From IMG/VR virus record IMGVR_UViG_2617270947_000002: DNA of 8,569 nucleotides. One strand, written 5' to 3'. Position 1 is the stretch's first letter. Each line of letters begins with the position of its first letter. Origin of the DNA: a virus. Taxonomy: Monodnaviria > Loebvirae > Hofneiviricota > Faserviricetes > Tubulavirales > Inoviridae. The position numbers and the translations under genes are program-made. This document shows, in pieces, positions 2,369 to 7,020 of the stretch. The notes beneath the pieces are model-generated. The model was not told the DNA's origin. It ran no database searches and saw only the letters and a program-made list of their open reading frames with translations.

Positions 2369-2710
2369 TTAAATCACCCTGTTTGCATAATCAAGAAATT
2401 TTTGTTTTAAATCGAAAACAAAAACACTGATACGAGTAACCATAATAACGTTAACACACGCCTGAAAATGGTCAGGCAGTACAGACGCCATTAGATGTGA
2501 AAAATCAGCGGGTAACCCGATATACATGACCTCAGCAAGGTACTGCATTAAAAGCGTAACAGTTGTTGTAATTAGCGCAACCAATGCAACCGCTATTAAA
2601 CCTGTTTTGGTTGCAAGCCGAGCTAAAAAACTTGCCGCATAGCCAATAAGCAAAGGAACAAGACCAATAAGAAAACGCAACAATGCAGGAATACCTAATA
2701 ATAAAGGCAT
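2369..2710 (-). CDS. gVI: pVI minor coat protein, 113 aa
   Basis: [16 protein letters not shown].. resembles M13 pVI MPVLLGIPLLLRFLG..; hydrophobic; ends FDLKQKF like M13 FDVKQKI. Stop TAA 2369-2371 abuts the gI ATG (TAAATG); start ATG 2708-2710 overlaps the gIII stop (ATGA). The ORF-track GTG start at 2713 is rejected in favour of the ATG. Confidence 0.9.
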   Translation of the reverse strand: MPLLLGIPALLRFLIGLVPLLIGYAASFLARLATKTGLIAVALVALITTTVTLLMQYLAEVMYIGLPADFSHLMASVLPDHFQACVNVIMVTRISVFVFDLKQKFLDYANRVI

Positions 2711-3954
2711 CACTCACCACCTTTACGAAGCAATGAAGTTAAAGAAGTAAATACATACCAGAACGTAAGGCAATAAAAAACCCATGAAAGAGCATTTTTA
2801 ATAGTCAGCAATTTATCGCAGCCAATATCGATCTGATAAACCTCTCCGGGAAAAATAATAAAATCAGAACAACCATTACCATTAGGTAAATTGGGCAACA
2901 TAGCACCTTTATTTAAGAAAGCCTCCCATAACGCACCATGAGAATCCTTTGCAATTCCTAATTCAGATTCAGCTAAAGTGGAAGCGCTATCTAATTCAGA
3001 CCCTCCCTCCCCATAACGGGAATCGCCGCCAGAAGGATCAGCAAAACGTCCGGCTCCGCGAGTAAGGTTATTTATAGAGTCAACAAGACGATTTATATTA
3101 TTTTTAGTCTGTTCATCAGCCGACTTTTTATCATCAGATGAGGTATCTTTTTCTGTTAACTTATCATGAATCTCACTGGCAATTTTAGGTGAAGCACCTT
3201 CGATAGCTGACTGAATATCTCCTTTGGTAATACTTGAGCCATTACCACCGCCAGAACCGCTACTTGGGTTACCACCGCCTGTATCACCTTCCTCGGTATC
3301 ACCATCACCTGTATCCCCGCCTCCAGTATCACCGCCATCGCCAACAGGAGAAGAAGGCTTATCTGAAGGTGCGGCTACAGTTCCGGTAGGCTTCCATGTC
3401 GCAGCACAAACAGTGCTATCACTCTGGCAAACAATGACGCCAGTGGCCTCATATTCACAACCGTTATAATAAATATAACGATCACCGTCATAAGAATAGA
3501 CATTATTGAATACACCTTCTTCGGGGGGTTTAGCTTCACAAATCTCTTCAGGCGTAGGCTCGGAAGGTTTTTCATCAGGAATAGATCGTTGAATATCACC
3601 TATAATATAAGCAGTTAAAGTCCAGTATTTATCTTTCTGGCCTGGAGAGTCGCTGTAAGTACAAGCGTCAGAAAATACAAGACGGAATTCAGAGTTAGGC
3701 CACATTCCCTCATAAGTTGGTTTAACCTGATTAAAAACAACCTGAGCACTGTCTTTAGCTCCCTGACAGGCAGAAGCCTGCATGGTTGCATCAATATAAT
3801 AAACAGTTTGTTTAGTGCCATATTGGTTGGTTATTTGCTTACTTTCAGCATATGCAGAGCTTTGAAAAGTAGATTTAGTAATGCTCTCCCATGAATCAGC
3901 ATACGAAAAAGAAGAAATAAAAATAGAGAAAGTAATTAATATTTTCCTTTTCAT
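2710..3954 (-). CDS. gIII: pIII adsorption protein, 414 aa; signal peptide, N-terminal domain of unknown specificity, N1-like TolA-binding motif, Gly-rich linker, C-terminal anchor domain
   Basis: Start [19 protein letters not shown] (ATG 3952-3954) just after the gVIII terminator. [34 protein letters not shown] parallels M13 N1 DRYANYEGCLWNATGVVVCTGDETQCYGTWVPIG. Linker [25 protein letters not shown]-terminus [24 protein letters not shown] parallels M13 FVFGAGKPYEFSIDCDKI..LRNKES. Confidence 0.9.
3240..3345 (-). repeat. Imperfect short tandem repeats encoding the Gly/Asp/Thr-rich pIII linker
   Basis: Plus strand shows reiterated ggtatcacc / gtatcacc / gtatcccc units with ccgcc spacers; encodes (G)nDTG repeats on the minus strand. 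Confidence 0.6.
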
Positions 3955-3961
3955 AATAACC

Positions 3962-3991
3962 CAATTTAATAAAGGGGCAACAAATGCCCCT
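3962..3991 (-). terminator. Rho-independent terminator between gVIII and gIII
   Basis: Minus-strand read AGGGGCA-TTTGT-TGCCCCT followed by TTATTAAATT (7-bp GC-rich stem, U-rich tail); same position as the classic Ff terminator after gene VIII. Confidence 0.7.
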
Positions 3992-4000
3992 GAGTGAATT

Positions 4001-4243
4001 TTAAACTGCTTTGGAAGCGAATTTTTTAAAAATACGAATGGCAAGGCCAGCACCAACTACAGCAACAACGACAGGCCATACTTTACCAATAAGATCATTT
4101 GCCTGAGTCAGTAATGCATCCATTGCCTGACCTGCATAATCAGCCCCGCCTGTAGACCCATCTGCCGCAAAAGAACTCGCAGAAACAAAAAGCGCTGTTG
4201 AAGCTGCTGCAATTTTAAATTTAACAAGAGATAAAACTTTCAT
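4001..4243 (-). CDS. gVIII: pVIII major coat protein precursor, 80 aa
   Basis: [26 protein letters not shown] signal then AADGS..; C-terminus [12 protein letters not shown] resembles recalled IKe (..KKFSSKAV) and M13 (..KLFKKFTSKAS). RBS GGAG 9 nt upstream of the ATG. Confidence 0.92.
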
Positions 4244-4267: not shown

Positions 4268-4363
4268 TTACATTAATCGGTCAGAAAATGATTTAAATGA
4301 ACCGACCGCGTAGAAAAGGGCAAAACCAAAGGTATAAGCCCCGAAGAAATAAGCTATATACAT
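4268..4363 (-). CDS. gIX: pIX minor coat protein, 31 aa (hand-translated, below ORF-track size cutoff)
   Basis: ATG overlaps the gVII stop (TAATG); MYIAYFFGAYTFGFALFYAVGSFKSFSDRLM, hydrophobic; C-terminal FSDRLM parallels M13 pIX ..FTRLMETSS; correct position between gVII and gVIII. Confidence 0.6.
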   Translation of the reverse strand: MYIAYFFGAYTFGFALFYAVGSFKSFSDRLM

Positions 4364-4449
4364 TAACGAAAAACCCCCGCAGTAATTGCGCCGAGGCCAA
4401 AAGAGATAACAATGCCTGACGCTATTAATATTTGTATAACATCAGCCAT
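4363..4449 (-). CDS. gVII: pVII minor coat protein, 28 aa (hand-translated, below ORF-track size cutoff)
   Basis: ATG 4447-4449 lies 2 nt after the gV stop, with AAAGG upstream; MADVIQILIASGIVISFGLGAITAGVFR, hydrophobic; correct position and size for gVII. Confidence 0.6.
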   Translation of the reverse strand: MADVIQILIASGIVISFGLGAITAGVFR

Positions 4450-4451
4450 AT

Positions 4452-4769
4452 TTAACCTTTTATTTCAGTGATTCCACCGTCAGATGAAATATTATAAGTT
4501 ACTCCTTCTCTACCCTCCATTGACCAGACACGAACATATACAGGTATCTGGACTAACTTACCGATAAGATTATTTGCCTGATTCATTACACCGGCATTAA
4601 CAAGAGCCTGAGAAACACGAATAATAATTTGGTCTTGTTTAGTGCCGCCAAAACCATCAGGGATCTCAAGGCCAATACCAATTTCATTATAGTATCCCTG
4701 ACCGTTGACTTTATTACGCTGACGAGCACCAAGCATTTTACCTTTTACGAAAAGACCATAATTAGACAT
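4452..4769 (-). CDS. Protein in the gene-V slot, 105 aa; presumed ssDNA-binding/packaging protein by position, sequence not recognisably Ff gVp
   Basis: Strong RBS AAGGAG 6 nt before the ATG, immediately after the gII stop; sits exactly between gII and gVII. I see no similarity to the 87-aa M13 gVp as recalled. Confidence 0.7.
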   Translation of the reverse strand: MSNYGLFVKGKMLGARQRNKVNGQGYYNEIGIGLEIPDGFGGTKQDQIIIRVSQALVNAGVMNQANNLIGKLVQIPVYVRVWSMEGREGVTYNISSDGGITEIKG

Positions 4770-4780
4770 ATTACTCTCCT

Positions 4781-5095
4781 TTAATGCCAGCTACTGGCAT
4801 GTGGAATGCGGTTATAATCGAAAATTAAACCTTTCTCATAAACCCATGATGGAATTTTGGCTGGTTTAGCCTCAAGTGTTCTTACTAATGGAACAACATT
4901 ATTTGAATCAGGGGATTCACAATAAAAATTAATATCTATCCCAAAAGACAGCAATTCTTTACGATGTCGGTAGAATGTAGGTTTCGGTAACATTTCTTTC
5001 ATGTTCGCGCCCTGCTTCCACAACAAATATGTAGACTGTATTTTTCTTGGGAGATTAATTATTTTTTCATCAGTTAATATGGTATTTTGATTCAT
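4781..5095 (-). CDS. gX: pX, in-frame internal-start product of gene II (C-terminal 104 aa)
   Basis: Internal ATG (complement of cat 5093-5095) preceded by AGGGAG with a 7-nt spacer; starts MNQNTIL.. vs M13 pX MNIYDD..; size comparable to the 111-aa M13 pX. Confidence 0.7.
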   Translation of the reverse strand: MNQNTILTDEKIINLPRKIQSTYLLWKQGANMKEMLPKPTFYRHRKELLSFGIDINFYCESPDSNNVVPLVRTLEAKPAKIPSWVYEKGLIFDYNRIPHASSWH

Positions 5096-5833
5096 TTCTA
5101 TTCTCCCTGCATAGTCAGAGAATAATTTATTGGGCGTATCAATATTCCAACTATTACCAAGCGTAAGGTTCAAATCAATTAATTCAGTTGTTCTTAACGT
5201 TAATTCAATACGTAATTTATCTTTTGACCAGTCCAGTAAACCAGCGTTAACAAATTCATCAGCAATCTGGTGCCCTTTTTTACCAGATATGTGTTCATCA
5301 TATTTTGAATAAAATTTCAAACTCCAACGACGGGAGTTTTTTCCTAAGTAAACAGTGCCACCTTTACCACAGGCGCGACCGTGGCGAGTTTTCGCTTTAA
5401 ATTCTGCGGCATATAACCATGCGCGGACATTTTCTAATGTTGACAATGAATACATATAGTTGATATCAATACGCGAGATCTTAAATTGCCCTGCCATTAC
5501 CTGTCGATAGGATGAAAGATCATGAGGAATATGCAGTAATGCCAATATTCTGGCATAAGCTGTTAATACTAACCCTTGCAAATCATCGGAGCCGATAACA
5601 GAGTGACCTTGCAAAAACTTTGACGGATTGCCGTCAATATAGAGATGTGTTGCCCGACCTTCGCCATCAGATCCAACAGATCTTACTTTCATAGTGGATT
5701 CATACGAACCGCGAACGGTCAACCGTTTTAGTGTTTCCCACTCCACTGCACCGTCAGCATCAACGCTGACGACACTACCAGCCGGTAATGGTCGGTGTAT
5801 GCAAGGTAGGATCCCGGTAAACCAGTCAATCAT
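4781..5833 (-). CDS. gII: pII rolling-circle replication initiator (nickase), 350 aa
   Basis: MIDWFTGILP vs M13 MIDMLVLRLPF; PSKFLQGHSVIGSDDL vs M13 PAKVLQGHNVFGTTDL; NNVVPLVR identical to the M13 pII C-terminal motif. RBS GAGG 7 nt upstream. About 60 aa shorter than M13 pII (410 aa). Confidence 0.93.
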   Translation of the reverse strand: MIDWFTGILPCIHRPLPAGSVVSVDADGAVEWETLKRLTVRGSYESTMKVRSVGSDGEGRATHLYIDGNPSKFLQGHSVIGSDDLQGLVLTAYARILALLHIPHDLSSYRQVMAGQFKISRIDINYMYSLSTLENVRAWLYAAEFKAKTRHGRACGKGGTVYLGKNSRRWSLKFYSKYDEHISGKKGHQIADEFVNAGLLDWSKDKLRIELTLRTTELIDLNLTLGNSWNIDTPNKLFSDYAGRIEMNQNTILTDEKIINLPRKIQSTYLLWKQGANMKEMLPKPTFYRHRKELLSFGIDINFYCESPDSNNVVPLVRTLEAKPAKIPSWVYEKGLIFDYNRIPHASSWH

Positions 5834-6000
5834 GTATCGCCTCAGAGAACAATTTTGTGACCAGAAAGCCTGTCAAGAGCTTATTAGTACCAATTCAGTC
5901 ACACAAATGTACCACCCAAGATCTTACCTCTCAAGTGATTTTGTACTGGATAAGTGACATATTTGTTCTTTTGAAATGGAGCAAAAAAGTAGGATATAGA
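5834..6000. promoter_or_regulatory. Divergent intergenic control region between gII (minus) and the HTH regulator gene (plus)
   Basis: 167-bp AT-rich non-coding gap between divergent start codons; direct repeats CCTGTCAAGAG (5869-5879) and CCTCTCAAGTG (5927-5937); ATTTTGT-containing repeats at 5852-5864 and 5939-5951; -35-like TTGTAC/TTGTTC hexamers. Promoter positions not determined. Confidence 0.45.
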
Positions 6001-6453
6001 ATGAGCGACAACTTCAACAGTAATGGCTACCCGGAAGAAATGGCAGAAGACATAGACTTACAGCGGGCAGAAAGGATAAAAAAAGCGATCCTAAGCAAAT
6101 TCACATACGAAAGGATGGAAGAACTGTCAGGCATCAACATTGGCACACTGAAACGAATCGCAAACGCACAGAGGGATGCGAAAATCAGTGAGCTGGAAAA
6201 AATTGCTGAAATCACTCAGACAGACATATTTGAACTGATTTTTGGCTCCAGTAGCAGTGATATCTACGATTCCAGCAAACGCTTCTTTGAGACGAGAAGT
6301 AAAGATGCGGCTCAGGCGGCTCAATTCATCATCTACAATCTTCGTACCCTTGATGATGAGGATATCCTTTGTTTGGGGAGAGTTTCGAGTGCCTTGCAAA
6401 CAGCAACAACATCAAGAAAATGGGATGAGCTTTTCGGGAAGAAGAAAGGCTGA
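6001..6453 (+). CDS. XRE (Cro/CI)-family helix-turn-helix transcriptional regulator, 150 aa; candidate phage repressor
   Basis: RBS AGGA about 7 nt before ATG 6001; residues around 24-60 (RIKKAILSK..MEELSGINIGTLKRIANAQRDAKISELEKIAEITQTDIFELI) fit the XRE HTH pattern; divergent from the replication gene. The ORF-track upstream extension (5857-6000) is rejected. Confidence 0.8.
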   Translation: MSDNFNSNGYPEEMAEDIDLQRAERIKKAILSKFTYERMEELSGINIGTLKRIANAQRDAKISELEKIAEITQTDIFELIFGSSSSDIYDSSKRFFETRSKDAAQAAQFIIYNLRTLDDEDILCLGRVSSALQTATTSRKWDELFGKKKG

Positions 6454-6507
6454 GTCTCAGAAATGAGACAAACGTGCAGTATTACCAACACTGCACGTTC
6501 TTTATTG
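6454..6507 (+). terminator. Tandem hairpins after the regulator gene; the second is a rho-independent terminator
   Basis: GTCTCA-gaaa-TGAGAC (6454-6469), then ACGTGCAG-tattaccaaca-CTGCACGT (6472-6498) followed by TCTTTATT. Confidence 0.65.
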
Positions 6508-6541
6508 TGCGAATTTTGAACAGTAAAAAAGGATCAAAAGG

Positions 6542-6964
6542 ATGAGTAGAAATAACGAAACAAGCGGCGTTGAACTGGTTGTCGTCGGCGTATTTGCTTT
6601 CTGTCTGGCAGTTGTTGCCTGGCTAATGAAAACTTTCGATGTTGAATGGCAAACAGCACTGGAAACTGCGCCTGGCCTGATAGTCTGGCTGCTTGTTGTT
6701 GGGGCGGGGGTCTTTTTCGGGATCAAAATGGAAACAGGTCTTGTTCGCTGGGGTGCTCCACTGGCGATCGCCCTTCTGATTCCGGTATTCAAACCAATTA
6801 TTAAGGAAGCGGCCGGAGTTCGTGAAATGGGCGGATTGGTTTTCGATGATATGGTTTCGTGGTACGGAACTGGCTGGGGAATGTCTCTGATGTTCTTCGG
6901 GATTCTTATCGTCGGATACGGTCTGCTTTATTGGTGGCACAGAAGGAATTCATATTACTGGTAA
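6542..6964 (+). CDS. Small integral membrane protein, 140 aa, about 4 predicted TM helices; prophage cargo, function unknown
   Basis: AGGA-containing RBS upstream; hydrophobic stretches VELVVVGVFAFCLAVVAWLM, GLIVWLLVVGAGVFFGI, WGAPLAIALLIPVF, GMSLMFFGILIVGYGLLYWW; no motif I recognise. Confidence 0.65.
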   Translation: MSRNNETSGVELVVVGVFAFCLAVVAWLMKTFDVEWQTALETAPGLIVWLLVVGAGVFFGIKMETGLVRWGAPLAIALLIPVFKPIIKEAAGVREMGGLVFDDMVSWYGTGWGMSLMFFGILIVGYGLLYWWHRRNSYYW

Positions 6965-7020
6965 TAATATTTTACCGAATCGAGCTGATGGAAAATCGCC
7001 TTAAACAGGAGTCAATTTAA

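Follow-up and report, generated by a model that had tools for sequence, protein, structure and literature searches.

The locus considered here raises the question of whether the attachment protein of a filamentous phage, in which an N1-like TolA-binding motif is preceded by another folded domain, represents a new architecture. The stretch of DNA analyzed (hereafter the window, 8,569 nucleotides) is a piece of an Escherichia coli chromosome, and it contains a complete inovirus module whose genes lie in the order II-V-VII-IX-VIII-III-VI-I-IV on the minus strand (Table 1). The product of gene III is identified from its sequence as pIII (G3P), the host-attachment protein of a filamentous prophage carried by this chromosome. 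The open reading frame is intact: on the minus strand it starts with the ATG at 3954, ends with a stop codon at 2710-2712 and translates into 414 amino acids, and the protein gives a full-length match to PHROG 4150, a family of virion structural proteins, with E = 4.5e-245. The same start is annotated by RefSeq, under the name "attachment protein", in the 99.9% identical genome NZ_CP035884.

A longer pIII of 448 amino acids, starting at an upstream TTG (4056), has also been considered. This start was rejected because the resulting protein overlaps gene VIII, while the alignment of the start and signal peptide with IKe and the RefSeq annotation both favor ATG 3954. The 19-residue signal peptide of IKe, as annotated in X02139, aligns column for column with residues 1-19 of pIII, and the crystallized chain of PDB 4EO0, the pilus-binding domain of IKe, begins at DNWES, which is the equivalent of the DSWES that follows the signal peptide here. 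The original prediction had placed the N1-like motif about 190 residues into the mature protein, a figure that fits only when the count is made from TTG 4056. With the start at ATG 3954, the motif begins at residue 158 of the precursor, that is, at residue 139 of the mature protein after the 19-residue signal peptide, and the N1-like domain itself begins at mature residue ~110.

Table 1. Features of pIII, of the prophage module and of the flanking region (positions are those of the window, residues those of the pIII precursor).
Feature	Residues	Positions	Strand	Basis or remarks
Gene III, pIII / G3P attachment protein precursor	1-414	2710..3954	minus	translation, 414 aa plus stop
Signal peptide, cleavage before DSWES	1-19	3898..3954	minus	alignment with IKe X02139
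Pilus-binding domain (PBD), conserved Cys63 and Cys98	20-128	3571..3897	minus	PF21443, 4EO0, AlphaFold model
TolA-binding domain (TBD, N1-like), Cys139/166/176/183	129-194	3373..3570	minus	PF05357, 4EO1, model
N1-like motif	158-191	3382..3483	minus	19 of 34 residues shared with M13
Gly/Asp/Thr-rich flexible linker, GGGDT / GDGDT repeats	195-240	3235..3372	minus	alignment with IKe, I2-2
C-terminal domain, Cys362/Cys379	241-414	2713..3234	minus	matches to fd, M13, IKe
Hydrophobic anchor	~389-409	2728-2790	minus	within C-terminal domain
Gene II		4781-5833	minus	PF05144, PF05155
Gene V		4452-4769	minus	PF17426
Gene VII		4363-4449	minus	
Gene IX		4268-4363	minus	
Gene VIII, major coat protein		4001..4243	minus	PF19199 Phage_coatGP8, E = 2e-18
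GC-rich hairpin and T-run, GGGGCA-TTTGT-TGCCCC-TTTATT, between VIII and III		3968..3990	minus	read from sequence
Gene VI, minor coat protein		2369..2710	minus	PF17537 DUF5455, E = 3e-9; RefSeq coordinates
Gene I		1274-2368	minus	
Gene IV		1-1266	minus	
Regulatory/accessory module		5857-7353	plus	
HTH regulator		6001-6453	plus	
Membrane-like ORF, 140 aa		6542-6964	plus	
ORF, 110 aa		7021-7353	plus	
GC-rich hairpin with T-run beside dif-like site		~7390-7430		
Degenerate dif-like site		~7430-7459	minus	by eye
hipA		7536-8569	minus	
hipA remnant, N-terminal ORF, 41 aa		8444-8569		
hipA remnant, separate C-terminal ORF, 313 aa		7536-8477		

A folded domain does stand ahead of the N1-like motif, as had been proposed; it had been regarded as unassignable, and this is not borne out by the present results. 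Residues 22-125 match the Pfam family PF21443 ("G3P, pilus binding domain") over profile positions 2-105 of 105 with 82.8 bits and E = 2.3e-23, well above the cut-off of the family (27 bits), and a sequence search of the PDB matches residues 20-128 to 4EO0 with E = 2.9e-26. The AlphaFold2 model of residues 20-198, for which 49 aligned homologues served as input, has a mean pLDDT of 93.1, and its top match in a Foldseek search of the PDB is again 4EO0, with a TM score of 0.95 (on the target) and an rmsd of 1.1 Å over 106 columns at 45% identity. The leading domain is identified, from sequence and model alike, as the IKe-type pilus-binding domain (PBD) at its usual position. It is found directly after the signal peptide, and a domain of the PF21443 / 4EO0 type at this place is what marks an IKe-type G3P. 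The crystal structures of the two IKe domains, 4EO0 and 4EO1, date from 2012, and PBD has a Pfam family of its own. The functions assigned here to the IKe domains are based on the titles of the PDB entries and the name of the Pfam family; for the order of the domains in IKe the alignment serves as well, since no explicit statement of it was found in the open literature.

The domain that follows PBD is of the N1 type. Residues 135-176 match PF05357 (Phage_Coat_A) with 33.5 bits, the cut-off being 20.8 bits, and residues ~129-194 match PDB 4EO1, the TolA-binding domain of IKe, with E = 4.8e-25. Other N1 structures are also recovered by phmmer, namely those of fd (1FGP, E = 1.3e-11) and If1 (2X9A, E = 0.0016), and full-length fd G3P matches pIII with E = 2.5e-18. 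In the Foldseek search 4EO1 is the second match (TM 0.89, rmsd 1.1 Å), followed by the fd and If1 N1 structures, and the N1-TolA complexes 1TOL and 2X9A are among the matches ranked below 4EO0 and 4EO1. The structure prediction that had been put forward as a check thus yields a confident model that superposes on both IKe domains. The likeness of the motif to M13 N1 is real (Table 1), and M13 pIII itself is matched with a BLASTP E of 3e-13. By analogy with these homologues, the second domain (TBD) is predicted to bind domain III of TolA. The spacing of its four cysteines is 27-10-7, and that of the fd N1 cysteines is 29-10-7.

The layout of the protein is signal peptide, PBD, hinge, TBD, linker and C-terminal domain, in an order reversed relative to M13. 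The claim that this is a pIII with N1 in second place is therefore upheld by the matches to PF05357 and 4EO1 behind PBD. The pIII of M13/fd/f1 and of If1 have in common with the window protein a homologous TolA-binding N1, including the cysteines of both disulfides, and a homologous C-terminal anchor, but in them N1 is N-terminal and the pilus-binding N2 comes after it, whereas in the window protein the N-terminal place is taken by the pilus binder, which has an unrelated fold. Residues 131-190 correspond to residues 15-74 of If1 and residues 137-198 to residues 23-85 of M13, and the pIII of both phages can be aligned to the window protein through N1 and the C-terminus only. An fd-like N2 domain was found neither by sequence, in the comparisons with M13 and If1, nor by fold, in the Foldseek search of the PDB, where the best fd N2 match of the model of residues 20-198 (9G8E) has a non-significant E of 0.72. 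The Ff-type layout, in which the mature protein begins with N1 and continues with N2, is thus not the one found. If1 had been named together with IKe and I2-2 as a phage sharing the PBD-first layout; its pIII has N1 first, like that of fd, and an If1-like layout is ruled out for the window protein.

The agreement with IKe, in turn, extends over the whole protein. The window pIII is colinear over its entire length with the pIII of IKe, I2-2 and the Erwinia phage PEar6, with 54% identity to each. With IKe and I2-2 (Lineavirus), whose own pIII are near-twins, it shares the domain order, the length of the signal peptide, the positions of the cysteines, the GGDT-rich linker and the C-terminal anchor; the differences are the overall identity of 54% and a linker that is ~17 residues shorter than in IKe. 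The cysteines at positions 63, 98, 139, 166, 176, 183, 362 and 379 are invariant when the protein is aligned with IKe, I2-2 and PEar6, with one pair in PBD, two in TBD and one in the C-terminal domain, the disulfides being putative. PBD and TBD are connected by a short Pro/Glu hinge (residues 126-136). Jakob and colleagues (2012) reportedly found that the two IKe domains are independent and that the TolA site is not masked, unlike in fd. The hinge fits independent domains, without constituting a proof of them.

Behind the Gly-rich linker lies a C-terminal domain that includes a hydrophobic anchor, again colinear with IKe. The C-terminal domain of fd G3P in the cryo-EM entry 8B3O is matched as a second stretch with E = 0.00065, and the C-terminus of M13 pIII matches this domain with a BLASTP E of 1e-11. 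By analogy, its role would be virion anchoring and membrane insertion. The type of the linker repeats depends on the allele, being GGDT-like in the window, IKe and I2-2 and GGGES in the UM146 prophage, which is of the UPΦ901 type and has a linker 16 residues longer than that of the window. Such GGGES repeats in the pIII linker have been reported for UPΦ901 as well (PMC7307601).

On these grounds we consider that the window encodes, very probably, a standard adsorption protein of the IKe type (Lineavirus / UPΦ group). The alignment with IKe and I2-2 finds the leading domain in the usual IKe position, an outcome that by the original prediction's own account makes the arrangement ordinary; the feature is indeed already known, and is ordinary for the IKe-type phage group.

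The surroundings of gene III are in line with this assignment. All the larger products of the module have the expected Pfam matches. The start of gene VI overlaps the stop of gene III, and its position is as in IKe. Between genes VIII and III lies a GC-rich hairpin with a T-run, and an annotated stem-loop, described as a potential terminator, is found between the same two genes in IKe. The plus strand encodes an HTH regulator as well as two ORFs of unknown function, neither of them with a Pfam family, and hipA is located at the right-hand end. The module of regulatory and accessory genes is a mosaic: the membrane-like ORF of 140 amino acids is 96% identical to its UM146 counterpart at the nucleotide level, and for the HTH regulator and the ORF of 110 amino acids no match was found in the UM146 prophage. 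NZ_CP035884, the closest genome (L001 in the coordinates given here), contains a 776-bp tandem duplication (window 5708-6486; L001 10484-11262) that takes in the HTH regulator together with the 5' part of gene II and is annotated as a second regulator copy and a gene II fragment; the same segment is single-copy in the window.

The UPΦ group has been described as a set of Enterobacterales prophages that integrate at dif, have structural genes most similar to those of IKe and I2-2, and were proposed for inclusion in Lineavirus; their genes II and V are of the Ypfφ rather than the IKe type, and two specific genes of unknown function, h1 and h2, lie downstream of gene IV (PMC7307601). IKe and I2-2 themselves do not integrate (PMC7307601), whereas the window pIII comes from an integrated prophage. 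The Lineavirus-like gene order and the integration at dif that characterize the group are both found here, and the prophage, dif/hipA-adjacent and Lineavirus-like, belongs to this published group. The UM146 prophage has the same dif-hipA location, a core from gene II to gene IV that is 85% identical at the nucleotide level, and a pIII of the same architecture with 83% identity; it differs in the linker repeats and in PBD, which is 82% identical. Beyond gene IV, in the part of L001 that lies outside the window, only a 76-bp stretch with 80% identity matches UM146 at the nucleotide level.

Exact and degenerate searches for the E. coli dif sequence gave no match in the window. By eye, a degenerate dif-like site, GGTGCGCATAA-TGTACG-ACTCGTTATGT, can be recognized ~75 bp from the hipA stop, in which the XerC arm is identical to that of E. 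coli dif and the XerD arm is degenerate. In NZ_CP035884 an intact dif is present ~1 kb beyond gene IV, at the other end of the prophage (the coordinates compared are window ~7430-7459, minus strand, and L001 2978-3005). A dif-like site at one end and an intact dif at the opposite end form the pattern expected of XerCD-mediated integration. A second GC-rich hairpin with a T-run lies beside the dif-like site (Table 1). Compared with NZ_CP035884, hipA has an internal deletion of 289 bp, with the breakpoint at 8464/8465 (L001 13240|13530), which splits the gene into an N-terminal and a separate C-terminal ORF; this persistence toxin gene is therefore a pseudogene in the window.

The architecture established above would, by analogy with the homologues that have been solved and studied, support an infection route of the following kind. 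The first contact would be made by PBD, on the virion tip, with the tip of a retractile conjugative pilus, and retraction of the pilus would bring the virion tip through the outer membrane to the periplasm. TBD would then bind the C-terminal domain of TolA, after which the C-terminal domain of pIII, which also serves as its anchor in the virion cap, would become inserted in the inner membrane, initiating the uncoating. By homology, the leading domain would determine which pilus is recognized, and F-specificity is not expected of the phage; this part of the original prediction stands, but it is not new. N pili are among those reported for IKe. Cells with IncI-type plasmids are described as hosts of IKe and I2-2, and IncI plasmids were also present in the hosts of UPΦ901; Shapiro and Putonti obtained no new infections with UPΦ901 (PMC7307601).

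Other explanations of the locus have to be weighed against the IKe-type assignment. That a novel, unassignable domain has been grafted before an Ff-like N1 to give a new architecture would agree with the lack of similarity between the leading domain and the pIII of M13 and If1, which are matched outside it, in N1 and the C-terminus; seen from the Ff phages, the domain does look foreign. However, IKe, I2-2, PEar6 and dozens of prophage homologues have this domain at the corresponding place, and it matches PF21443 and a crystal structure of 2012 with E values of ~1e-23 to 1e-26 and a TM score of 0.95. We therefore assign this explanation a vanishingly small probability, and take it to be refuted by the Pfam, PDB, alignment and fold matches together. 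A decaying or cryptic prophage, in which gene III is a relic without adsorption function, could be suspected from the disruption of the adjacent hipA by the 289-bp deletion, from the truncated gene III of some related prophages (the partial matches H89 and H90), and from the early gene III stop reported in one genome (PMC7307601). On the other hand, each of the nine core genes is present in the window as an intact ORF with a significant family match, and relatives of UPΦ901 shed phage DNA that is protected from DNase into the culture medium (PMC7307601). The dN/dS ratios relative to the UM146 allele amount to 0.16 for PBD, 0.04 for TBD and 0.05 for the C-terminal domain, and gene III is therefore under purifying selection, which also argues against a relic. 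We regard such a decay of function as quite improbable.

The same ratios bear on a different possibility, namely that the fold and the domain order have been kept but the diverged PBD has switched to a pilus other than those of IKe and I2-2, such as a different type of conjugative pilus or one encoded on the chromosome. Among the folded domains dN/dS is highest in PBD, so that this receptor-binding domain is the most relaxed folded part of pIII; it is also the least conserved folded domain relative to IKe, with 47% identity compared to 73% for TBD and 52% for the C-terminal domain (58% for the linker). Moreover, PEar6, whose PBD is 54% identical to that of IKe, infects Erwinia amylovora, the leading domains of more distant relatives fall outside PF21443, and the UPΦ paper raises the idea that the pilus used may differ between g3p variants (PMC7307601). 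Yet the overall dN/dS is well below 1 and gives no signal of diversifying selection at the level of domains, and the predicted fold of PBD is essentially identical to that of IKe. A switch of receptor is in our view rather unlikely, although it deserves to be kept in mind: with a PBD that is 47% identical to IKe and 82% to the common UPΦ allele, the specificity could be either the same or shifted. Should the switch be true, the rarer prophage lineage would have a distinct host range, and this could explain the lack so far of laboratory propagation of UPΦ-type phages.

Under the preferred, IKe-type assignment the discovery value of the locus is small, the PBD-first order being a documented IKe-type layout, the pIII being annotated in RefSeq, and the prophage group having been described in 2020. 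A modest use can be seen for this rare receptor-binding allele as a probe for the pilus of an unculturable prophage group. Prophages of the UPΦ type are found in ~1% of complete E. coli genomes. The arrangement of the whole window is present in 46 of 5,426 such genomes according to megablast, and the DNA coding for PBD in 54; in ~6 of these 54 it is more than 90% identical to the window at the nucleotide level, and in ~48 it is ~84% identical and of the UPΦ901 type.

The family extends beyond E. coli. A search with PBD only returned 13 proteins, mostly partial, and the full-length protein was used instead, giving 68 cluster representatives, most of them with both PF21443 and PF05357. They come from Salmonella, Escherichia, Yersinia, Citrobacter, Izhakiella, Providencia, Proteus, Pantoea, Pectobacterium and other genera. 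The plan of this clade is a leading domain followed by the TolA binder, with the leading domain as the variable part. In distant relatives from Pantoea, Tatumella, Pectobacterium and Arsenophonus (P0065, P0073, P0077, P0079, P0080 and P0081), the PF05357 match is kept at residues ~100-170 and the 80-120 leading residues fall below the PF21443 threshold. These leading domains could be genuinely different receptor-binding domains, and as such a better source of novelty than the window protein. One further observation concerns E. coli EC5502 (NZ_CP092647.1, H77), which has 15 separate places matching the PBD-coding segment, a number that suggests a long tandem array of the prophage.
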